Shown here piece by piece: positions 3,001 to 61,152 of a stretch of 63,943 nucleotides of DNA. The DNA is taken from positions 1-63,943 of the IMG/VR virus record IMGVR_UViG_3300025103_002730; one strand, 5' to 3'. Both the position numbers and the translations under genes were made by a program. Every line of letters starts with the position of its first letter. Within the stretch, counting starts at the first letter, position 1. The notes beneath the pieces are model-generated. The model had not been told where the DNA came from. It worked only from the letters and a program-made list of their open reading frames with translations, and did not search any database. The stretch is from a virus. Lineage: Duplodnaviria > Caudoviricetes.

Positions 3001-3427
3001 CCCTCTGGAAATAACAACGCTGGAGAGCGTAGCTGGGACAGGTTTTGACGCATATTTTGTGGCAGGTAAGGTTTATGAGAAGTTGAATACTGATCCCAAG
3101 CCATATCTGATGAAAAGAAACGGTGAGGAAATTATACGAATAGCAGCAGATGAGTCTCAGGGCACCCATCTTACCTACGGACACACATCAGCAGCGGAAG
3201 CTGGTGCTTTTATCAACGAATCTAGAGAAACGACGTTTACTTTAGATCCAGCCCTATATTCTGCTAATAAGGAGTACGACCTCTTCTTCCACTTCCATAA
3301 TGATATAACTATGACGTGGATGTCAAGTAAAAAGGGTTTCTTTGGGTCTTCTGCAAGAACGAAGGTTCCCCCACATCAAACACCAGCCGATGAACAACAC
3401 ATCACAGTTAACATTAATCCACGATAA
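2..3427 (+). CDS. Large putative virion/tail-associated structural protein, 5'-truncated by the window
   Basis: The frame is open from base 2 (FCPITEWIPFKLYLFD...) into the listed ATG at 275, so the gene starts upstream of the window. Protein is >1140 aa, rich in G/D/T/N, has no enzyme motif, and has a 'NLGTGYKTGDIV' segment of the kind seen in tail/baseplate proteins. Confidence 0.55.
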   Translation, partial: FCPITEWIPFKLYLFDNPHSDVSDKTVTIKSLKYAAPRRDVNGKLFNTRVDGGYTDYNPENTASQGVGDLDLHTNPVTKKWESGSPVLFAKMTTSVGYPTVPSIDHLETSDIAENLDGDDYETTKFIPASGEAMPIRPQNGNPLQWQPNYLRPDDVRCVDEENPDYDKETLSVYNFSTHRKFDRGDEVMLTRIDGVWHISAMGTNTGETEEVAGSVNKWGEFTYMMTNADYFFRNTDGASFAPRDAEQFFHKLYYDGDPVNTGLDYGLDGGWDANQTFNTANVMDVYLRHGYAQTTSFDYLDSTIFGIRGKAGTVGKFDDKCSIATTSALETAGGVRIPPPDADTNTRNAAHAGVFFGCVFPGGYTGASVYLDDRPWDTKVRAVGTTVATDNYINTETTNSKKKIFDAGNGTSDRNNCRQPVGSDPFDQISASDNRWSRADSRYSANIFAKDRNTNSAILASVPADVMTNASPTGKNGSPLYPVHRFKDMHRRDEDVKPLAGKAFLQGMWLGKNDTAGSDEFDDSDSAFDFSPISRNKLMFRPLKMEAYIQFGVNNNGPEAGDIARELSKTTTQQKKGFCAEARRTQKDWNRPATAFFEDRERGETDEWHFDHLHSPLWSDDGLSWGGDVTQDIRYYNLHEFDYWDNSLGPTKWSNDIQHPFGNGNWKGAKAFGVITTFNTVTANSQIDITTDNIYGMGPAGHGDFTIAGGYAHQDRTWGVSEFIDSYKQENIIDLSLRVYHQHPRDQTLYDPRTFAVHHFNPDVRLRGGKFLDDDGEEKLLDPFRPIQIQGDITEGAVLGGGDVEYSYSYEETRSEVDIRVISRHAKHIDHELPGLQDTDLYKSGQEYEAVKLNVGEYVLSDVTLDIDQQRQPPVISSKFWRIDDVRVGKLLPFRYNTLEVGVPTPENEVFFVNDGVRSRSHTGLNASTLNIKDMMIIKNLGTGYKTGDIVGLNSRGVKFKITALLGAPVGLECLSRGSGITASQVASYDDTFKEGEDGPLEITTLESVAGTGFDAYFVAGKVYEKLNTDPKPYLMKRNGEEIIRIAADESQGTHLTYGHTSAAEAGAFINESRETTFTLDPALYSANKEYDLFFHFHNDITMTWMSSKKGFFGSSARTKVPPHQTPADEQHITVNINPR

Positions 3428-3438
3428 TCACACGTTTT

Positions 3439-3482: not shown

Positions 3483-4244
3483 ATGGCATCAATCACGTTC
3501 CATGCTAACAATAACAACATTTACCCTAGCAATCCGACAAATCCCCCTGATTTGATCGACCACGCGGCAGGCTCTGGCATGGGCTTCTTTGGTGGCGGTT
3601 TCGGTATTTCTGTCCCGGTAAATGACTATCAGACCACAATGTACGTAACCAACTCAAATGGTACTGCATCTGGGGTTAGGTGCTCCAACACTAAATATAG
3701 TGATACTGTCGCCTTCCCCAGTAGTGGGGTTCAGATTCAGGGCGGTGTAACCACTGGAACATCTGGTATTCCCAACATCGCGGCCCCTCTCAATATTCGA
3801 TTTGAGCACTCTGAGGGAGTTAGGGTCCAAAACTGTAAACTACGTATCTTTGACCGCTCTGATATCGCACAACATGCTAGTGGTGTGACTACACAGGTTT
3901 ACGAAGTACGTCATCCGCACCCTGTTGAGGGAGTCGATTTTGGTGCTGACAAGGGTCCACTGAAGCATCGTGGCGTAACTGACGCACACGGTTGGACACA
4001 GTTTGCTGACGGTTTCTCTATGACCGACATGGTTATGACCGCTGGTCCCGGCCCAAGTGGGCTGAATACCAACTCCAGCGAAGTGCTGGCGACTGGAGAT
4101 GGATCTTACACTAACTGGATTTCTCAGTCTGGTGAGTCGTGTATTGCTGCTCGTCATGACTGGTTTGTAGCTATGAGTGCCTCTCCCGATAGTATTGGAA
4201 GTAAGACGGATTTTGGTCTGTACTTTACTTTGGAGTATCTGTAA
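3483..4244 (+). CDS. Putative virion structural protein
   Basis: 253 aa, G/S/T-rich, strong RBS AAGGAG, starts with MA, ends LYFTLEYL; follows the large structural ORF. Confidence 0.5.
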   Translation: MASITFHANNNNIYPSNPTNPPDLIDHAAGSGMGFFGGGFGISVPVNDYQTTMYVTNSNGTASGVRCSNTKYSDTVAFPSSGVQIQGGVTTGTSGIPNIAAPLNIRFEHSEGVRVQNCKLRIFDRSDIAQHASGVTTQVYEVRHPHPVEGVDFGADKGPLKHRGVTDAHGWTQFADGFSMTDMVMTAGPGPSGLNTNSSEVLATGDGSYTNWISQSGESCIAARHDWFVAMSASPDSIGSKTDFGLYFTLEYL

Positions 4245-24975: not shown

Positions 24976-25972
24976 ACATACCCTCCGTTATCTCATATTC
25001 CATAGTCACTTGTTCTCTCTTGGGTTGTTTTTTCGCCCATCTAAACATTTCATCTACGGTTTTGATAAGGTAAGTAGTATCCTTAAATCCTAGACACATT
25101 TTTGCCTTAGAATGATCACATTGTGTATGTTTAGCTTCATGACGTGCCTCTATATGTTTCACCTTTACTGGATTACACCCGTTCCACACAGATACACGTC
25201 GTACGGCCTCAGCTAGTGCATTAAGGGTCCAATCCTCTTCGGCACCTAAATTAAACGTTTCTCCATCGTGATTATCAATCAATTGCTCGAACGGTTTCAT
25301 GTAGTATTGAACATCAGAGAATTGACGAGTCTGCTCACCATCCCCATAAATCAAGAGCGGTTCACCTTCAAGAGCACGCCGTATAAAGATTCCCACTACA
25401 TTCCTATAGCGGTCCCAGATATTCTGGTAAATACCAACAATGTTATGAGGTCTGACGATGGAATAACGAAGACCATGTTGATCTCCAGCTATCTTCATAT
25501 CCATTTCTACCGCGTATTTAGCTACACCATATGGATCGATGGGTTGTGGAGTCATCGTTTCAACGAATGGAGGTTTTTGAGCACCGTAAACCGCCATAGA
25601 TGAGGTGAAGATCATCTTAACGTCGTTCTGAATACAAGCGTTTATTACATTAGCACTGGATAATACGTTGTTGGAGTAGTTAAAGTGGCGAATAAAGGGT
25701 GATAGACCCTCCGCAGCGTAAGCAGCGAAGTGATAACAAGCTACTACATCTTTCTCCATAGTAAAGATATTGTTTAAACATCCCTTAGCATCCACGTCAG
25801 ATAGGTCAATAGGCCAAAATTCAAACTGTTTTATGTCAGCCTGAGGTAAGTATTCTGGATACCCACCGCTAAGGTCGTCAATACCAACAACTCTAAAACC
25901 TTGTCTGATCAAATAACGAGAGAAATGACTACCAAGTAGTCCAGCACATCCTGTAACCACTACGGTTTTCAT
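24959..25972 (-). CDS. NAD-dependent nucleotide-sugar epimerase/dehydratase
   Basis: GCAGLLG, 'TSSMAVYG', YGVAK, 'GDGEQTRQF'. Confidence 0.9.
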   Translation of the reverse strand: MKTVVVTGCAGLLGSHFSRYLIRQGFRVVGIDDLSGGYPEYLPQADIKQFEFWPIDLSDVDAKGCLNNIFTMEKDVVACYHFAAYAAEGLSPFIRHFNYSNNVLSSANVINACIQNDVKMIFTSSMAVYGAQKPPFVETMTPQPIDPYGVAKYAVEMDMKIAGDQHGLRYSIVRPHNIVGIYQNIWDRYRNVVGIFIRRALEGEPLLIYGDGEQTRQFSDVQYYMKPFEQLIDNHDGETFNLGAEEDWTLNALAEAVRRVSVWNGCNPVKVKHIEARHEAKHTQCDHSKAKMCLGFKDTTYLIKTVDEMFRWAKKQPKREQVTMEYEITEGMYDCWK

Positions 25973-27657
25973 TGAATTACCCCCTTTTGCTTCATAACTT
26001 GGACCCTCTTCTGTTCCCAGTTATTCCTCTTATCGCACTGAGCCACCATTTGATTGTAGGCCATATTGAAATCAAACGATGAACGATGATTAGCACCGTC
26101 AAAAGCAGCCGAAGATTCGTTGAAGTACATGCCCCCCGTAGACCCCGTAGCCGACTTGTATGTCAAATCCCTACATAGACGTGACTCGAAGAAAGTATTG
26201 AGTTTGGAAGGGTCTCCGAGGGCCTCAATGATCAACCACTTGGCAAGCTGGCCAGCGTCTACGTTGGAGATTTGTTCGTCGCTTAGTTTTTGAACTGGTC
26301 TATGTTGTTTGAGTGGAGACCCCCATGTTTGTTCGGTGGGTATTACCTCAAAGCTATCAAAGATATCTTCCCACTTCTTACCGCTCATGTCCCATTGATA
26401 GTACTTTTCGAAATTCTCACGGGTTTTTGTGCCCATTTTTTCTCTACCTTCATCCGTCATCTTTTCAAAGAAATGAAGAAATACTTCTGAGGAATATTCG
26501 TTATCAGGCACAGCCCTGAGACAGCCAGTTTCTAGCTCTTTATAAAGAGCGGCTGGCGTTAGGGTGAACCCTTCTAACTTACGAAGTACAGACTCCATAG
26601 CAGAATAATCAGTGCCACAAACGGGAACCCCACATGCGGCGGCTTCAACCTGCGGAAGTCCAAAACCCTCACAATTAGCATACTGCGTGTAGAGGTCGAA
26701 CAGATTGATGATGTTGGACAAGTCCTCATAGGAGACACCGTTTTTAACGTTTGACAGGGTCGAACCCCACTTACCAGTGAATGGGGACTGAGCAACCGCA
26801 CCTTTAAAGAGAGATGGGAAGGGTTTCTTGGTCTCTGGGCAGATATATGTGAACAGAACGTGAGCAGACAGATCGTGCTGCAGAATCAGTTCTGGGATAT
26901 CCCAACCCAAGTCTGGGTAGGATGTATGACAATACAGGTAGTAGTTGTCATTTTCCGCCTTATCCAGAAACTTACGGAAAGCCTCAAAGAGATCTGGGTA
27001 CAATTTACGTCGTTGATTACGCATAACCGCCCCTAAGATTTTGAAATCTGGGTTAATACCGTAAGATAACTTATGGGCTTTCTTATCAGGGACCGGATTG
27101 TAAGCCGGGTGAGCAGATGGGGGTGACGATCCGTGGTACTTAATTTTCCCACCAGATTGTTCATTCAACACCCCACCGGCCCAGTCCGAATAAGTCAGGC
27201 AGGCGTCAGCATTGGCATATGTAGAGATCCACTGACGGGCCTGTGGACGAGCGTCAACGGTCGGCATAATAGCCCACTTGAAGTAATTTCTAAATGGAGA
27301 GCGTTCAGCAAAATCCAACATCCAGAAGTCACGAATATCACACACGATATCCGGCATGAAATCCAAACATACATGTTCAAAGATCCACTCACCAAACTGA
27401 TTGGTTCCAGAACCGTTGTAAGCCCGCATTTCCTCTTCTGTAGCCTTGGGTTCACAATCTGTATTTGGAGATACTCCGTAATACTTCCAAGGGATGTTAG
27501 CGGCCCGAGGGTCATTTCGCTGACCGTAGGAACCCATCTCGGCAATTTCGTACTTACCAGTTCCGTGCAGGTAGGTCAGAATCTCTCTGGTGTATGTTGC
27601 GTACCCAGTATTGAGAAAAGTTGCCTCACTACAAAATAATATACGCTTACGCCTCAT
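25969..27657 (-). CDS. Glycosyltransferase family 4 (GT-B)
   Basis: 'RNQRRK', 'EGFGLPQVEAAACGVP'. Confidence 0.88.
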   Translation of the reverse strand: MRRKRILFCSEATFLNTGYATYTREILTYLHGTGKYEIAEMGSYGQRNDPRAANIPWKYYGVSPNTDCEPKATEEEMRAYNGSGTNQFGEWIFEHVCLDFMPDIVCDIRDFWMLDFAERSPFRNYFKWAIMPTVDARPQARQWISTYANADACLTYSDWAGGVLNEQSGGKIKYHGSSPPSAHPAYNPVPDKKAHKLSYGINPDFKILGAVMRNQRRKLYPDLFEAFRKFLDKAENDNYYLYCHTSYPDLGWDIPELILQHDLSAHVLFTYICPETKKPFPSLFKGAVAQSPFTGKWGSTLSNVKNGVSYEDLSNIINLFDLYTQYANCEGFGLPQVEAAACGVPVCGTDYSAMESVLRKLEGFTLTPAALYKELETGCLRAVPDNEYSSEVFLHFFEKMTDEGREKMGTKTRENFEKYYQWDMSGKKWEDIFDSFEVIPTEQTWGSPLKQHRPVQKLSDEQISNVDAGQLAKWLIIEALGDPSKLNTFFESRLCRDLTYKSATGSTGGMYFNESSAAFDGANHRSSFDFNMAYNQMVAQCDKRNNWEQKRVQVMKQKGVIQ

Positions 27658-34029: not shown

Positions 34030-34663
34030 CTCTCATTGCGTTGATACTGTAGAAAATTAAATCGCCGTACACATTCCTATCGAGACCTGACTCGTCTTGA
34101 ATTTTTCTTATCAAACCGGCGTCAAACTCATCTACGACAGAGCGTCTCATGGCCGTTGAGGGGTTGTTTATAACCCACGATTTGGATAAAATGTACTGGT
34201 TTACATTGTAGGGATGTGAAGTAACCCCTTCACAATCCGGAGCGTTCATATCAATGAATGGTGATGTTCGATCAACAAACCTTTGTATTTGACCTCCTAC
34301 TATTCCTATGTCTTTATTTGTGTCTAAGAAAGCAATCTGTTTCTCTATTCTGTTGGGCGTCATTATATCGTCGCCATCCATAAACACCAGAAACTCACAA
34401 TCTTTGTCTAAAAATTTTTTCGCAAAAAGTCTAGCTGAGTCACACCCAAGGTTTTGCTCCGTCCTGACCAGTTGAATATTTTGACTAACAATTGATTCAA
34501 GAAATTTAATTGTCTCTAAGTTGATACTGCAATCATCTACAATAATAAGTTTCCAATGTTTATAAGTTTGGCTTTGAATACTCTGGATCGCCTCTTTTAA
34601 CCAAAGAACATTCGTATTGTGTACTGGCATAGCAATATTCACAATCATAATATCTTGTTCCAC
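33887..34663 (-). CDS. Glycosyltransferase family 2
   Basis: 'AMPVHN...SIQSQTY...VDDCS', 'FMDGDD', 'RIEKQ'. Confidence 0.88.
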   Translation of the reverse strand: MEQDIMIVNIAMPVHNTNVLWLKEAIQSIQSQTYKHWKLIIVDDCSINLETIKFLESIVSQNIQLVRTEQNLGCDSARLFAKKFLDKDCEFLVFMDGDDIMTPNRIEKQIAFLDTNKDIGIVGGQIQRFVDRTSPFIDMNAPDCEGVTSHPYNVNQYILSKSWVINNPSTAMRRSVVDEFDAGLIRKIQDESGLDRNVYGDLIFYSINAMRGVQIRNLSDIIVFYRVSEHNLSGKVWYGDQEKHKQLRKKMLEYYVSK

Positions 34664-36615
34664 TCTACTTTGAAATTTTCAATAGAAAAATTTTCTCGAA
34701 TGTAGTCTCTATTTTTTGCTTCTTTTGTTGTCTCCTCGCACGACCTTATCGCTTTGGCCCACTCTGTTGCGTGAGATTTATATCTTACAATGGAGTCAGA
34801 AAACATACCTACGCCAACGGGGTGAGAAACTGTTGGTATACCATGTGCAATACCTTCCGCTACGGATAAACCGAAAGATTCGTCATAAGATGTAGATAAA
34901 GATAAAGAGCACGTTTTGAATAATTGTGAAACATCTTCTACGTGCCCGTAATAGAACACATTTTGTATACTGTCACTTAAAATCCTATGGTTGACCAAAT
35001 CTCTTGCTTCTTGATCGAAGTATTGCTCTAACCAACTACCAGCTATATGGAAATTAAAATCTGGTAAACAGTTAATAATATCGGCAAGGACTTGGACACC
35101 CTTATATTTCTCTATCCTATGATGCCACAGGATATTTTTTGGGACCGGCCTTCTTTTTAATTCTTTATCGAAGAATACTGGTGGAGGTATACATATACCG
35201 TTATAATGTTTTGCAACAGTCTTGTCCACAAACACACTAACGTCTGGTTTGAGAATATCAATTAATATATCGTGCAGTCGGTTATGTCTAAATCCAGAGT
35301 GAGATACGTATATTATCTTCTTATTGAGTGGATTATCTCTCATGAACATTGGCAATGATTCATTTAAATAGTATGCCCAATAGATGATAATATCAGATTT
35401 TACATAAACTTCTTCCATTTCTTCTTCAGAATAACCAGTCGTCATACCCGTTTCAAGGTTATGGAACTGGGGAGGGTTCGCCAGTGGTACTATACCAGTA
35501 ATATCATCACTAAAACATTGTGCAAAAAGTTTCATCCACGTAAGGGCACCTCCGGGGGCTATTTCACCTTGAATTAGACCTATTTTGTTTGATTTAAAAG
35601 TGTTCGACTTTAGATTATTTAAATCGCTTGGTTGCCAGATCGGCTCTATATTTTGGTAAGAGTTTTCATACCTTTGAGGCTCTATTGGACAAAAATCCCC
35701 TAAAGATATTTGTGACAGAACGGCCTCTCTAGTTTCTTGGTCCCTCAAAGAATTTACATGTATAAAATAAGCCTCTGAGGAATTGTACCAGAAACCATCT
35801 TCACAAGTGAATAGACAGTTCCACTTGAAGTCAAGTGGGTTAAAAACATCTTCGCCATAAACTAAAAGGGTCAAATAATTCTGGTCAAAGCACCACTGCT
35901 TAGGATATGTATCTGTGGGCTGTTGGTAGTATTTTGCACAAGACTTTGGTATAACCAAAACGCCCCCATTAATCATTACCTTGGGGTAAATTGTTCTACC
36001 ATTATCTAAAAATTTTTCTGCCTGCTTGTCTGTTAGAGTCTTTCTTATTATTATGTCCTGCTCTCGTTCAATCCAACTGTAATCTTTTTGCGACCAGATG
36101 CGATATTCATCAAAGCCAGATATTTTATCATCTGGTGTTATCTCAAAGATATTTGGTGCTTTATCAGATACAAGTATATCACAATCTAAATACAATGTTT
36201 TTTCGTATATAGAAGTTACTTGTCTTACTCTATACTTGTTAGCCATAGGCCAATCTGGATGTTGATCTCCAGTTAGCTCTATGTAATCTGCACCGCATTC
36301 TTGTGCGTATTCTTTGATTCTCTGACGTGTTACTCTGAGTAGTTTCCTAGCTGCCTCGTTAGCTGGAATGACGCATATAGCTAATGTACTTTTGGGTTCT
36401 GGAATATCATCATAAAAATCAATAGTGCTAACTCTATGTTCCGACGTACTCAAACTAAGCACACCCCTACTCTTAGATGGTCGTAGATATTTTTCCCTCT
36501 CTGCTTGAGATGTATCTTGGCACCACTTCCAGTTAGGCGGTATTACACCCATCTCTTTTTTAAAGACCTTACACCAACCCGGACTAGAGCATTGACACTT
36601 GGACAAATCATTCAT
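34645..36615 (-). CDS. Fused GT8-like (GT-A) + GT4 (GT-B) glycosyltransferase
   Basis: 'LYLDCDI', 'INGGV', 'DQNYL', 'WN' (GT8-like), followed by 'ESFGLSVAEGIAHGIP' (GT4). Confidence 0.8.
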   Translation of the reverse strand: MNDLSKCQCSSPGWCKVFKKEMGVIPPNWKWCQDTSQAEREKYLRPSKSRGVLSLSTSEHRVSTIDFYDDIPEPKSTLAICVIPANEAARKLLRVTRQRIKEYAQECGADYIELTGDQHPDWPMANKYRVRQVTSIYEKTLYLDCDILVSDKAPNIFEITPDDKISGFDEYRIWSQKDYSWIEREQDIIIRKTLTDKQAEKFLDNGRTIYPKVMINGGVLVIPKSCAKYYQQPTDTYPKQWCFDQNYLTLLVYGEDVFNPLDFKWNCLFTCEDGFWYNSSEAYFIHVNSLRDQETREAVLSQISLGDFCPIEPQRYENSYQNIEPIWQPSDLNNLKSNTFKSNKIGLIQGEIAPGGALTWMKLFAQCFSDDITGIVPLANPPQFHNLETGMTTGYSEEEMEEVYVKSDIIIYWAYYLNESLPMFMRDNPLNKKIIYVSHSGFRHNRLHDILIDILKPDVSVFVDKTVAKHYNGICIPPPVFFDKELKRRPVPKNILWHHRIEKYKGVQVLADIINCLPDFNFHIAGSWLEQYFDQEARDLVNHRILSDSIQNVFYYGHVEDVSQLFKTCSLSLSTSYDESFGLSVAEGIAHGIPTVSHPVGVGMFSDSIVRYKSHATEWAKAIRSCEETTKEAKNRDYIRENFSIENFKVEWNKIL

Positions 36616-53701: not shown

Positions 53702-54217
53702 TTAAAAAAGGTCTGTAGGTTTAATTACTGGAGTATCTCCAGATTTCCTTTTTGTTAAGCCTTCCTCTTCTCCCTGTATGTATTGACCGCCATCCTCAAG
53801 GATAGTCGATTTAAGTATGACTGATTTGACAAATGTACTGAATTCATCCAATTTTGAGTCTCTTTCGAAATTCGTTTGCAGGATCTGCATAGACTGTACC
53901 TGAAAAGCCGTCGTTGGAATAGAGGCGATTAGTAGGGCGAACTTCTCCATAGTTTCTGGAGAGTAGTCATCCATCCCAACGTCTATGACTATCTCACCAT
54001 CCTCATCCACGCTGTAGCAGACGCACGCAGGACGACCCTTATTCCCAAAGGACTCCTTCGACGATTTTGTCTGCGGTGTTTCTCCAAGTGAATTCGCTGG
54101 CGGTGGAGATCCCGGCTTCTGAGATTTCCCCCTTGTAATTAGCTGCAAAGGCCAGCATAGCGTCCGAAAGATCTCGTATAGTATTTTCATCAATTTTTGC
54201 CCATTTTCCTTGTCCAA
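53702..54217 (-). CDS. Hypothetical protein
   Basis: ORF overlaps the GT4 3' end; the true start is uncertain. Confidence 0.45.
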   Translation of the reverse strand: MDKENGQKLMKILYEIFRTLCWPLQLITRGKSQKPGSPPPANSLGETPQTKSSKESFGNKGRPACVCYSVDEDGEIVIDVGMDDYSPETMEKFALLIASIPTTAFQVQSMQILQTNFERDSKLDEFSTFVKSVILKSTILEDGGQYIQGEEEGLTKRKSGDTPVIKPTDLF

Positions 54218-55118
54218 AGAACCACTTGTTGTCGTAAGCCGGTTCGGTGTTCTCGATGTTTATAGCTGTACAGTTATCAGCATTGCAAAACTCTGTATGA
54301 GCAGAATAGTCGGTGGCAATTACGTGTCTACCTACTGACATCATCTCCAGTAGCTCCAGATTCCAACCTTCTCCACGAGAAGGAAAGACTCCACAGTCCG
54401 CTTCCGCCATCATATTATACACACCTCCCTGTGTCTCAGCCCTCGGAATAAGTTTTACTCCGGGGTGAGAGTACAGAGATTCCCACCTCTCATCCTCCCC
54501 AGTAGTGTTGAATGGGTTGTGGCACATCATTCTTAGCTCGATATTGGGATTCTGCTCGTAGGCCAACCTGAAGGCTCGAATCAGGATATCGTGCCCTTTA
54601 CGCACCTCCCATTTCCCACAGTTAAAGAAAACCGTCTTATTTTTAGGGTGTTGCTGAGTCATTGACGGGTTAGTGGGTAAAAAGATAGATGTGTCTACAC
54701 CCAGAGGTACTACGTGAATGTTATTACCCAGTCCATGATACTGAATAACACCCTTGGCCCACTCTGAGCATACCATCAGTTCATCGCAGGACCGCATTTG
54801 ATGTAATTCCTGCTTCGTGAAGGTGTCTAGCTCGAAGATAGGGAACCCTATGTGTTTTCCGCGACCAACGTGTTGGGCTAGGTCAAACTGGTGCCACAGA
54901 CGCACTGAGGCGGCTTCTGGGTTGTACCCGTTTTTGGCTAGGTCAAGAGATCTCTGTACTATCGTATGGTCTTCTTGACAGGAAACGCTAATGCTCTCAG
55001 GGCCAGAGATAGGATACAGGGATACTTCAACACCACGATTCCAAAGTGCCTTGAGGATATTGAGACAAGTAATCCCATATCCCAATTGATTAATCGGTCC
55101 CGTTAAATTTAATTGCAT
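54039..55118 (-). CDS. Glycosyltransferase family 4
   Basis: 'GKWEVRKGHDIL', 'FPSRGEGWNLELLEMM'. Confidence 0.88.
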   Translation of the reverse strand: MQLNLTGPINQLGYGITCLNILKALWNRGVEVSLYPISGPESISVSCQEDHTIVQRSLDLAKNGYNPEAASVRLWHQFDLAQHVGRGKHIGFPIFELDTFTKQELHQMRSCDELMVCSEWAKGVIQYHGLGNNIHVVPLGVDTSIFLPTNPSMTQQHPKNKTVFFNCGKWEVRKGHDILIRAFRLAYEQNPNIELRMMCHNPFNTTGEDERWESLYSHPGVKLIPRAETQGGVYNMMAEADCGVFPSRGEGWNLELLEMMSVGRHVIATDYSAHTEFCNADNCTAINIENTEPAYDNKWFFGQGKWAKIDENTIRDLSDAMLAFAANYKGEISEAGISTASEFTWRNTADKIVEGVLWE

Positions 55119-55183: not shown

Positions 55184-55612
55184 TCATTTAAACACCTCTC
55201 TTACAAATTCCTCTACAGTTTTTGTCTGTGGCTTTTCGGTCAGAAACTTATTTACGGTGCGTTTCGCTGTTCTGCGTCTTTCTCCGAGTCCCACTAGGGC
55301 ATCCACACAGTCATTATAAGCTGGATGCTTCTGACGCTCAGGAAGTGGGATGGGTTTAGCCTTAGGTGAGGCGTTCTTGCCCTTCTTCTTTTTCTTCTTC
55401 TTCTTTTTCTTCTTGACTTTGGGTAGCTCAACAGCAACTACAGGTGGTGCTTCAGGAGGGTCGTCTATGTACCCTAGATCAAAACGCTCTGGGATCTTTA
55501 GGGGTTTGACAGATTTGTTAGTAAGACCGTTGACAAAACAGATAAACCAGAAGGTTCCAACGAGGGAGCTACACAGTTTAACCAATAGGTCTATATGTCT
55601 AGGGTCGTCCAT
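55184..55612 (-). CDS. Membrane-anchored protein with poly-Lys tract and RuvA-C-like domain
   Basis: TM helix, K11 tract, 'DCVDALVGLGERRRTAKRTV' resembling RuvA domain III. Confidence 0.5.
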   Translation of the reverse strand: MDDPRHIDLLVKLCSSLVGTFWFICFVNGLTNKSVKPLKIPERFDLGYIDDPPEAPPVVAVELPKVKKKKKKKKKKKGKNASPKAKPIPLPERQKHPAYNDCVDALVGLGERRRTAKRTVNKFLTEKPQTKTVEEFVREVFK

Positions 55613-55792: not shown

Positions 55793-55820
55793 ATGATAGT
55801 CTATATCGGCTGTATGTCAA
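55793..55820 (-). promoter_or_regulatory. Sigma-70-type promoter
   Basis: TTGACA-16 nt-TATCAT. Confidence 0.6.
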
Positions 55821-55841: not shown

Positions 55842-55872
55842 AAAAAAGGCCTCGATAGTTTCCCATCGAGGC
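55842..55872 (-). terminator. Rho-independent terminator
   Basis: GCCTCGATGG-GAAA-CTATCGAGGC followed by CTTTTTT. Confidence 0.8.
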
Positions 55873-55931
55873 TGAAATAGCAGCGTTTATTCCCGTGAAC
55901 ATCTTCGAAAGAAGGCTGCTATCGTGTAAAA

Positions 55932-56096
55932 TGGAAGGGCGGGATTTACTTTATTTACCCGCAACTTTCAGGGCCAGTTGTGTCAATGTCCCTACTCGAA
56001 CCGCTATCCACTGCCTCAGTCAGTTGACCCTTGGCCTTCATAGATTCGCGTGCTGTTACCGTCACTGGCTTGCTCCGGTGTTTTCAGCCACCTTCC
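55932..56096 (-). ncRNA. Unknown 165-nt structured RNA with tRNA-like ends
   Basis: 5' GGAAGG pairs with 3' CCUUCC-A; T-like stem GCGGG/CCCGC; internal helices UGGCU/AGCCA, AGGGUCA/UGGCCCU and CAACU/AGUUG. Confidence 0.6.
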
Positions 56097-56108
56097 GCCA
56101 GACAGGAG

Positions 56109-56465
56109 CTACCCGTCTGAATTCTTATTCCTCGGCGTAATCTGTGATGGATCAGGACCAAGGGAGATATCGTCTGCCATAATACAGACGGAACTTTTCT
56201 TGTTCTTTTCTTCATCCTCGTAGTTGTCAATCTTTAGCTTACCAGTAATAGCTACGCAACGGCCCCTAAGAAGCATAGGATTGAGGTTTTCTGCCATCTT
56301 ACCAAAACATAAAACATTGATAAACAACGTGTCATCGTTACGATGATCATTGACGGCTAACCTAAACTTAGACATGGACGTTCCCTTTCTCGTCGCTCCA
56401 AATTCCGCATCGCTAGTTAGCCGACCTGCTCCGTTCCAACAATTCTGATTCATCTGATACTCCAA
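56109..56465 (-). CDS. ssb: Single-stranded DNA-binding protein
   Basis: 'GRLTSDAE', 'FRLAVN', 'FINVLCFGKMAE', 'GRCVAITGKL..DNYED'. Confidence 0.88.
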   Translation of the reverse strand: MEYQMNQNCWNGAGRLTSDAEFGATRKGTSMSKFRLAVNDHRNDDTLFINVLCFGKMAENLNPMLLRGRCVAITGKLKIDNYEDEEKNKKSSVCIMADDISLGPDPSQITPRNKNSDG

Positions 56466-57212: not shown

Positions 57213-57265
57213 ACTTAATTCCTTTCTAAAAGATCAAAAACCGATGGAGACCGTGGTAAAAGAAT

Positions 57266-57539
57266 TGGAGGCGGCGGAAGTCGAATCCGCGTGTTGTATA
57301 GGTTTCAAAATCAACAGTTTTTACATGTTTAGTGCCTAAGGCACGGTTCTTGCTGTTAGCGATAGTTCCCGAAGGATCTCTCTATGGTCGGGTGATGAGG
57401 CCCATAGAAGCCTCACAGCCTACGCTGCAAGTGCAAAAGAGTTTACAGTTATCGTTTGGTGTGGTTTTTAGCTAGCCCCCACGCCACCTAGCACATGTTG
57501 TTGAAGTCTCCGTCTACCAATCAATTCCAGTACGCCCCC
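57266..57539 (-). ncRNA. ssrA: tmRNA, compact 274 nt, tag (A)VNSFALAA*
   Basis: Acceptor GGGGGCG/CGCCUCC-A with a G3-U pair, T-arm GCGGA-UUCGACU-UCCGC, and 'AUAACU' before the tag ORF GUA AAC UCU UUU GCA CUU GCA GCG UAG at 57446-57420. Confidence 0.92.
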
Positions 57540-61088: not shown

Positions 61089-61152
61089 AGGTACCTGAGG
61101 GAATCGAACCCCGTTACAAAGGTGCTGCTCTACCTAATTGAGCTAAGGTACC
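61089..61152 (-). pseudogene. tRNA-Thr(UGU)-derived RNA lacking the 3' anticodon strand and variable loop
   Basis: Perfect GGUACCU/AGGUACC acceptor and D-arm, then GCACC-UUUGUAA joined directly to the T-arm. Confidence 0.7.

Follow-up and report, generated by a model that had tools for sequence, protein, structure and literature searches.

On the minus strand of the 63,943-nucleotide (nt) viral contig IMGVR_UViG_3300025103_002730 (Duplodnaviria; Caudoviricetes), which was analysed over its whole length and is called the window here, a gene for a single-stranded DNA-binding protein is followed by a structured RNA element and a terminator. The ssb gene (56109-56465, -), taken from the list of open reading frames (ORFs), encodes 118 amino acids (aa) and gives a Pfam SSB match (PF00436, E 6e-17). 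The intrinsic terminator (55842-55872, -) consists of a 10-base-pair (bp) stem (55872-55849) with 6 GC pairs, followed by CTTTTTTG. An earlier reading of the sequence (the original prediction) had placed an RNA with ends like those of a transfer RNA (tRNA) at 55932-56096 (-), directly downstream of ssb and upstream of the terminator. This arrangement was confirmed, and all quoted strings are present, including the start GGAAGG-UGGCUGAA and the end GCGGG-[14 nt]-CCCGC-CCUUCC-A. As set out below, covariance-model comparisons place the element almost certainly in the manA RNA family (RF01745), as a divergent representative. Its core (55932-56096, -) extends from the closing stem P1 through the 3′ strand of P1 and one unpaired A; with a conserved 5′ hairpin, the full RNA unit measures about 189 nt (55932-56120, -).

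At its gathering thresholds, Rfam reported nothing at the RNA site. When the search was run by E-value on 2.3 kb, the Rfam manA model matched with its whole length over 55929-56118 at 22.5 bits (E 0.0044), the identical letters being clustered in the 5′ junction and the 3′ hairpin. Unlike this 2.3-kb scan, a run of RF01745 on the whole record of the window gave no match at E up to 10. A further covariance model, R1, was built from six relatives of one type (L005, L006, L210, L247, L253 and L268; loci are designated by L numbers) with the window excluded; its E-values are roughly calibrated. R1 matched the window at exactly 55932-56096 over its full length (71.5 bits, E 4.4e-19), which was the sole match in 63.9 kb.

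The family set used for all comparisons below comprises at least 66 unique sequences, obtained by pattern scans of viral and metagenome collections after removal of duplicates; since the patterns were derived from the window and from the Rfam consensus, the sample is biased, and it is incomplete. Two loci, L097 and L198, were removed as chance pattern matches in which the closing stem lacked complementarity, and a first DNA pattern had returned 33 stretches of which only L052 and L065 were genuine members, the rest being coding-like. In each of the 66 listed family loci R1 found one site, with E no worse than 2.2e-5. Among these loci are L298 (identical in sequence to L124), L093, L262, L204 and L303 (identical to L290), which pass the Rfam gathering score; the corresponding Rfam scores are 80.5 (L124), 77.5 (L093), 62.9 (L290), 59.3 (L262) and 58.6 bits (L204). 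Because R1 matches the window and the Rfam-passing members alike, the window RNA very probably belongs to the manA family, and the original view that it could not be assigned to any known family was superseded by this homology chain together with the Rfam check. The three relatives that likewise follow ssb reach 59.5 (L005, which passes), 45.8 (L006) and 22.4 bits (L009) with the Rfam model, and the R1 seed members L210 and L247 stay below the gathering score. Among 21 family sites scored against Rfam, seven were at or above the gathering score and 14 below, and therefore the current annotation misses such members. By the same sequence comparison, the window RNA sits in a part of the manA family that is unreached by the current Rfam model.

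The structure model is based on alignment A1, which holds 11 sequences of the window's own subclade. In A1 the structure is paired in 99.2% of 385 cells, and compensatory changes occur at 10 of 35 pairs, with at least one in each of the eight helices. Slid controls, in which the partners were shifted by one to three columns, were 33-45% paired and had at most one compensatory pair. The L005-type set gave a similar picture (97.7% of 262 cells paired, 14 of 45 pairs compensatory), as did the 66-sequence alignment fitted to R1 (94.3% of 2106 cells paired, 32 of 38 pairs compensatory), and over the three alignments the slid controls ranged from 33 to 51%. The R1-fitted alignment leans towards the structure of its model, and relatedness inflates shuffle statistics. 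These results bear out the earlier proposal of a conserved structured RNA: homologs were found after ssb, and comparative covariation supports the helices.

The closing stem P1 is formed by the 5′ strand GGAAGG (56091-56096, -) and 55933-55938. It is fully paired in A1 and 98.9% paired across the 66 listed sequences, with compensatory changes at five of its six pairs, and its 5′ strand is followed by the conserved junction GUGGCUGAA. The P2 arm (56052-56088, -) comprises P2a (56085-56088/56052-56055), P2b (56076-56079/56058-56061) and a 14-nt loop, L2; in A1, P2a and P2b show a GC to AU switch in four of 11 sequences as well as CG/GC and GC/AU switches. The P3 arm (56002-56050, -) is a long interrupted hairpin ending in P3b (56018-56029; 4 bp, 4-nt loop). 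P4 (55970-55992, -) has a 3-bp stem (55990-55992/55970-55972) and a 17-nt loop, and one of its positions takes all four Watson-Crick types in A1 (AU 5, CG 4, GC 1, UA 1). P5 (55939-55962, -) is a 5-bp hairpin whose 14-nt loop reads GGGUA...AAUCCC; it abuts the 3′ strand of P1 and is 100% paired in the 66 listed sequences, and its loop ends match the Rfam consensus. Upstream of the core, and separated from the closing stem by 1 nt, lies P0 (56098-56120, -), a hairpin whose 9-bp stem carries the loop UAGCU. In the alignment it matches the first hairpin of the Rfam manA model, and 61 of 65 unique members have a hairpin of at least 5 bp that ends within 8 nt of P1, the stems showing 37 different sequences. 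The UAGCU loop is conserved and starts with the ssb stop codon, whose TAG (56109-56111) provides its first three bases; the RNA core begins 13 nt after this stop codon. The coordinates given originally were thus exact for the core, but left this conserved 5′ hairpin outside.

The four interior helices first proposed were not supported. The pairings UGGCU/AGCCA and CAACU/AGUUG were paired in 82.7% of 110 cells with 0 compensatory changes, and they are broken where the sequence varies (4, 5 and 10 of 11 sequences unpaired at three positions). AGGGUCA/UGGCCCU and ACUG/CAGU, with 43.8% of 112 cells paired, fall within the range of the slid controls; the apical alignment is weak here because the tip of the window's P3 differs from that of its nearest relatives.

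Could the element be a chance fold in the 3′ untranslated region of ssb, or part of a coding segment? Folding of the single sequence is unremarkable, with a z of only -1.71 and 14 of 200 shuffles folding equally well, and ORFs of 81 and 57 aa overlap the RNA on the plus strand. Against this stand the compensatory covariation in every helix, the conservation across the 66 unique listed sequences in differing gene contexts, and indels of 1 and 2 nt among the 11 close relatives, which argue against coding. We give a non-functional segment practically no credence.

The idea of a pseudoknot stood, although its partners did not. The original prediction had paired the loop of the CAACU/AGUUG hairpin with AGGGUC, while the supported pairing joins the L2 strand GCCAGU (56064-56069, -) to ACUGGC (55973-55978) in the loop of P4. 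These 6 bp are 100% paired in A1, and one of the pairs is GC in six sequences and AU in five. In 52 of 66 listed members, with 19 different L2 strings, the two corresponding places form an equivalent Watson-Crick pairing of 5 bp or more, compared to 136 of 1320 combinations in a swap control in which the P4 region was exchanged between members. Within one sequence, the complementarity of L2 and L4 was not significant by shuffling, and the evidence for the pairing is therefore its constant position with changing sequence.

The window RNA shares with the manA consensus the 5′ hairpin, the closing stem and the GUGRCUGAA junction, further the arms P2, P3 (including the small hairpin P3b) and P4, and finally P5 with its GGGUA...AAUCCC loop abutting the closing stem (GYGGGUA...CCCRC). 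Also in common are the loop-loop pairing that joins the P2 loop to the region of P4, the origin from marine phages and, in close relatives, a downstream hsp20/ibpA gene. A 'pseudoknot?' is already marked in manA in the figure legend of Weinberg 2010 (PMC2864571). The window RNA differs from the consensus in lacking two of the three hairpins of the P3 arm, only the middle one (56018-56029) being present. The two side hairpins are likewise absent in the L005-type relatives, one of which passes the Rfam gathering score. Furthermore, L2 is enlarged to 14 nt, and the P4 hairpin, with its 3-bp stem and 17-nt loop, is shorter than that of the consensus.

A further difference concerns the position of the RNA. 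manA RNAs are described in Weinberg 2010 (PMC2864571) as lying in potential 5′ untranslated regions, including those of ibpA chaperone genes, while the window RNA sits at the 3′ end of ssb, before a terminator. Rfam types the family as cis-regulatory, and a leader or attenuator would work through P1 and the adjacent U-run as a conditional terminator that responds to a ligand, temperature or a protein and so controls read-through into the downstream gene. In the window, such a U-run is present (55928-55931, -) immediately 3′ of P1 and its A; the clade of the window, GGAAGG/GGAAAG, has a U-run at this place in 19 of its 20 unique members. Read-through would, however, meet a second hairpin (55877-55923, -; outer stem of about 8 bp, from reading of the sequence) and then the unconditional 10-bp terminator, which begins about 60 nt 3′ of the RNA core. 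The next gene (55184-55612, -) has its own sigma-70-like promoter, TTGACA-16-TATCAT (55793-55820, -), an 11/12 match. Since the terminator intervenes and the next gene has a promoter of its own, the window RNA would be unable to act as a leader for that gene. No promoter of comparable quality lies in the interval between ssb and the RNA, the best candidate being a 9/12 match within ssb. For want of a good promoter in between, the RNA would be transcribed as a 3′ extension of the ssb message, and this transcript may end either at the U-run of the RNA itself or 60 nt later, at the strong terminator.

Across the family, the leader explanation draws support from the genes downstream. An hsp20 start lies 62-199 nt downstream in eight of 66 listed members (Pfam HSP20 in 3 of 3 tested), and gp32 (PF08804) 84-246 nt downstream in 21 of 66 (Pfam gp32 in 3 of 3 tested). 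At L109, a 12/12 promoter, the RNA, a U-run, a hairpin, a Shine-Dalgarno sequence and hsp20 follow each other in this order. Both here and at L294 the 12/12 promoter ends about 10 nt before P0; downstream of the RNA, L294 further has a U9 run that is followed by a second promoter. Some members lie inside tRNA arrays: L296 has tRNA-Ile 25 nt upstream of it and tRNA-Met 13 nt downstream, and L212 is located between tRNA-Pro and tRNA-Thr. The downstream genes are very diverse, and, by a rough measure, proximity is to the upstream rather than the downstream gene (40 of 62 listed members lie no more than 60 nt after the upstream ORF, and 12 of 60 no more than 65 nt before a downstream ORF that is 60 aa or longer). 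A leader function stays attractive where hsp20 follows directly; as an account of the element we regard it as possible but rather unlikely. For the window itself, we lean somewhat towards an autonomous RNA in place of a cis-regulator.

A relation to SSB proteins would be another way to read these contexts, with the RNA binding or titrating the phage SSB, or feeding back on the expression of ssb or gp32. In 37 of 66 unique listed members the RNA adjoins an SSB gene of either of two families; a PF00436 ssb lies 16-62 nt upstream in eight of 66 listed members and 291-373 nt upstream in eight more, and the other 21 are the members with gp32 downstream. These cases nevertheless belong to two clades only and perhaps represent two independent events, and the search patterns came from the window, which biases the sample. 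Other clades adjoin genes for IMPDH/GMP reductase (downstream in L204), DNA polymerase III alpha or an HSP90-like ATPase, or tRNAs. A functional tie to SSB is an improbable explanation. Within the T4-like gp32 clade (L089, L151, L170 and others), a conserved ORF of 42-57 aa (MFDKFIY...) was observed between the RNA and gp32, beginning 10-20 nt after the manA RNA.

Relatives of the window's ssb protein are encoded at 44 loci, and at three of these (L005, L006 and L009) a similar RNA directly follows the gene, while the nearest ssb relatives, L001 and L002 (96% identity), lack it. Where the manA RNA would be, L001 and L002 have about 80 nt of unrelated GC-rich sequence and a terminator (~3355-3435). 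The DNA run X13 contains a natural variant in which 55848-56114 is swapped for 85 other letters, and the replaced segment takes in the RNA, the second hairpin and the terminator. The space after ssb appears to be a site where small structured cassettes are exchanged. At L008, a candidate remnant follows ssb, a short stretch with CCCCACCCTTCC at its end that is similar to the 3′ end of the RNA; R1 gave no match there at E up to 1, and the remnant was not confirmed. The second hairpin of the window belongs to no confident Rfam family (best Spot_42, 19.1 bits, E 1.4). In the corresponding position, L005 (~3335-3390), L006 and L009 (~3540-3590) have another conserved hairpin, CUUGGYUAAC...AGGUUAAA..., for which no Rfam family matched, and the same hairpin follows ssb in L013-L015, which are without the manA RNA. 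A blastn search with 2.1 kb around the site against GenBank phages gave no match, and no cultured relative was identified by it.

The original prediction had further taken the element for a tRNA mimic that host RNase P and RNase Z could excise, possibly with addition of CCA. A resemblance exists: P1 (6 bp) is stacked on P5 (5 bp) as an acceptor is on a T arm, and both of these helices, the proposed 'acceptor' and 'T-like' arm, proved to be supported by covariation. Behind the 5′ strand come UG and then GCUG, similar to U8 and the beginning of a D stem. In tRNA-like domains, too, the closing stem stacks on a neighbouring 3′ hairpin and leaves two bases unpaired behind its 5′ strand and one behind its 3′ strand, which in the window RNA is a single A. 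YrlA-type Y RNAs offer a tRNA-like comparison for such a stacked closing stem and 3′ hairpin. Same-strand tRNA genes lie 10-28 nt away in four of 66 unique listed members, where co-processing with the tRNAs is possible, and a tRNA or transfer-messenger RNA (tmRNA) occurs within the fetched flank of 23 of 66 listed loci. The window itself has a tmRNA match (57263-57539, -; RF00023, 50.5 bits, gathering score 47, uncalled by ARAGORN) and five tRNA matches at 58.4-61.2 kb on the strand of the RNA, together 1.2-5 kb upstream of it. As two side observations on these genes, in related contigs the manA-type RNA is preceded, at a distance of about 1.5-1.9 kb, by permuted tmRNAs (RF04321; L009 has the highest score, 96.2 bits), and the fifth tRNA match (61089-61152, -; Rfam 35 bits), beside tRNA-Tyr, is not reported by ARAGORN.

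The resemblance does not extend further. The P5 loop of 14 nt has no 7-nt T-loop consensus, there is no CCA, ARAGORN reports nothing at the site, and no model of the tRNA clan overlaps it at E up to 10; the absence of an anticodon arm and of a tmRNA tag, noted at the outset, was confirmed. RNase P would remove P0, yet P0 is kept in 61 of 65 members, and in the relatives L294 and L109 promoter and U-run define the ends, contrary to the proposed processing by RNase P and RNase Z. The species 1 and 2 RNAs of phage T4 (rnaC and rnaD; AF158101), which are small and stable, are likewise encoded immediately behind a tRNA gene, and their placement in the tRNA cluster resembles that of L296 and L212 in the manA family. 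Homology to them was nevertheless rejected, as unfiltered R1 on the T4 tRNA region reached no more than 3.7 bits (E 1.9) on the rnaC strand; a canonical T arm, which the window RNA lacks, forms the end of rnaC. Taken as a mimic of tRNA, the element would be hard to reconcile with these results, and we consider this origin of its ends improbable.

Among the remaining neighbours, the gene at 55184-55612 (-) encodes a product of 142 aa without a Pfam match, in which an A-rich tract encodes a run of 12 lysines; similar Lys-rich proteins also follow in L109 and L005. The gene content of the window, a contig whose completeness is estimated at about 38%, includes DnaB, DNA polymerase III alpha and several glycosyltransferases. 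Three genes encode group-1 glycosyltransferases (25969-27657, 34645-36615 and 54039-55118, all -), two of which also weakly match the 'GT4 in conflict systems' family.

Taken as a whole, our analysis makes it likely that the element is a compact multi-helix phage RNA, a divergent manA member that forms a self-contained module. Such an exchangeable module would be a stable RNA in its own right and not a riboswitch. Other members of the family point to a possible assembly: a recent preprint (bioRxiv 10.64898/2026.07.01.735769) reports from cryo-electron microscopy that manA RNAs assemble in vitro into decamers and octamers and also into a 60-mer cage, held by the kissing loops L5-L7′, L8-L9′ and L3-L8′ together with a GNRA-receptor contact at L6. 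By analogy with these, the window RNA may form homo-oligomers through loop-loop contacts, and the L2-L4 pairing may be one of the oligomer contacts. With the numbering derived from the Rfam consensus, we infer that the contact given as L3-L8′ in the preprint would equal the L2-L4 pairing, and that L5-L7′ would join the two hairpins that are absent here.

GOLLD and ROOL (Kretsch et al. 2025, PMC12286853) are described as phage or prophage RNAs, often near tRNA islands, that form RNA-only cages. They are, by analogy, the closest functional parallel. They are several times larger than the window RNA and unrelated to it in sequence and structure, and no homology is claimed. Within literature searches on manA and wcaG RNAs and on GOLLD/ROOL, no paper came up that links manA RNAs to tRNA arrays or to ssb genes.

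One may take this line further and propose that manA-type RNAs are autonomous small phage RNA genes and not riboswitches, in which L2-L4 is the intermolecular kissing contact seen by cryo-electron microscopy and assembly into cages or rings is selected in infected cells. They would then form, among cage-forming phage RNAs linked to tRNA islands, a miniature third class beside GOLLD and ROOL, and the window variant, poor in hairpins, would assemble into a different or smaller oligomer. As autonomous genes, they would be expressed from their own promoter, with the 5′ hairpin and a U-run, or through embedding in tRNA arrays, or as part of ssb and gp32 messages. This extended proposal is speculative, and we would not bet on it in its entirety.

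Several points weigh against the reading of the element as a self-contained, possibly oligomeric manA module. The manA score of 22.5 bits is far under the gathering score of 55.2. Covariation cannot separate an intramolecular pseudoknot from an intermolecular contact. The mapping of helix numbers follows the Rfam consensus and not the figures of the preprint, and by this mapping the contact listed there as L5-L7′ cannot form in the window RNA, because two consensus hairpins are missing. Six of the eight hsp20-flanked relatives have no obvious separator from hsp20, which fits a leader role there, and in L296 the U-run cannot be an efficient terminator since a tRNA follows 13 nt later. The sole contig from an RNA library (X12, 152 nt) corresponds to 56226-56377 within ssb, with none over the RNA and none at all in X22; such contigs are blind to ends and strand, and are neutral on the element.

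For the annotation of the window alone, the outcome is an ordinary one, namely a known family with a divergent member. The function of the family is a currently active question, and the 2026 preprint reports RNA cages in vitro. In this lineage the RNA behaves as an exchangeable module, either behind a promoter of its own or in a tRNA-array context, and this argues against the label 'cis-regulatory'. Finally, the approximately 19 sequence versions of the covarying loop pairing provide a genetic handle on whether oligomerisation of these phage RNAs is selected.

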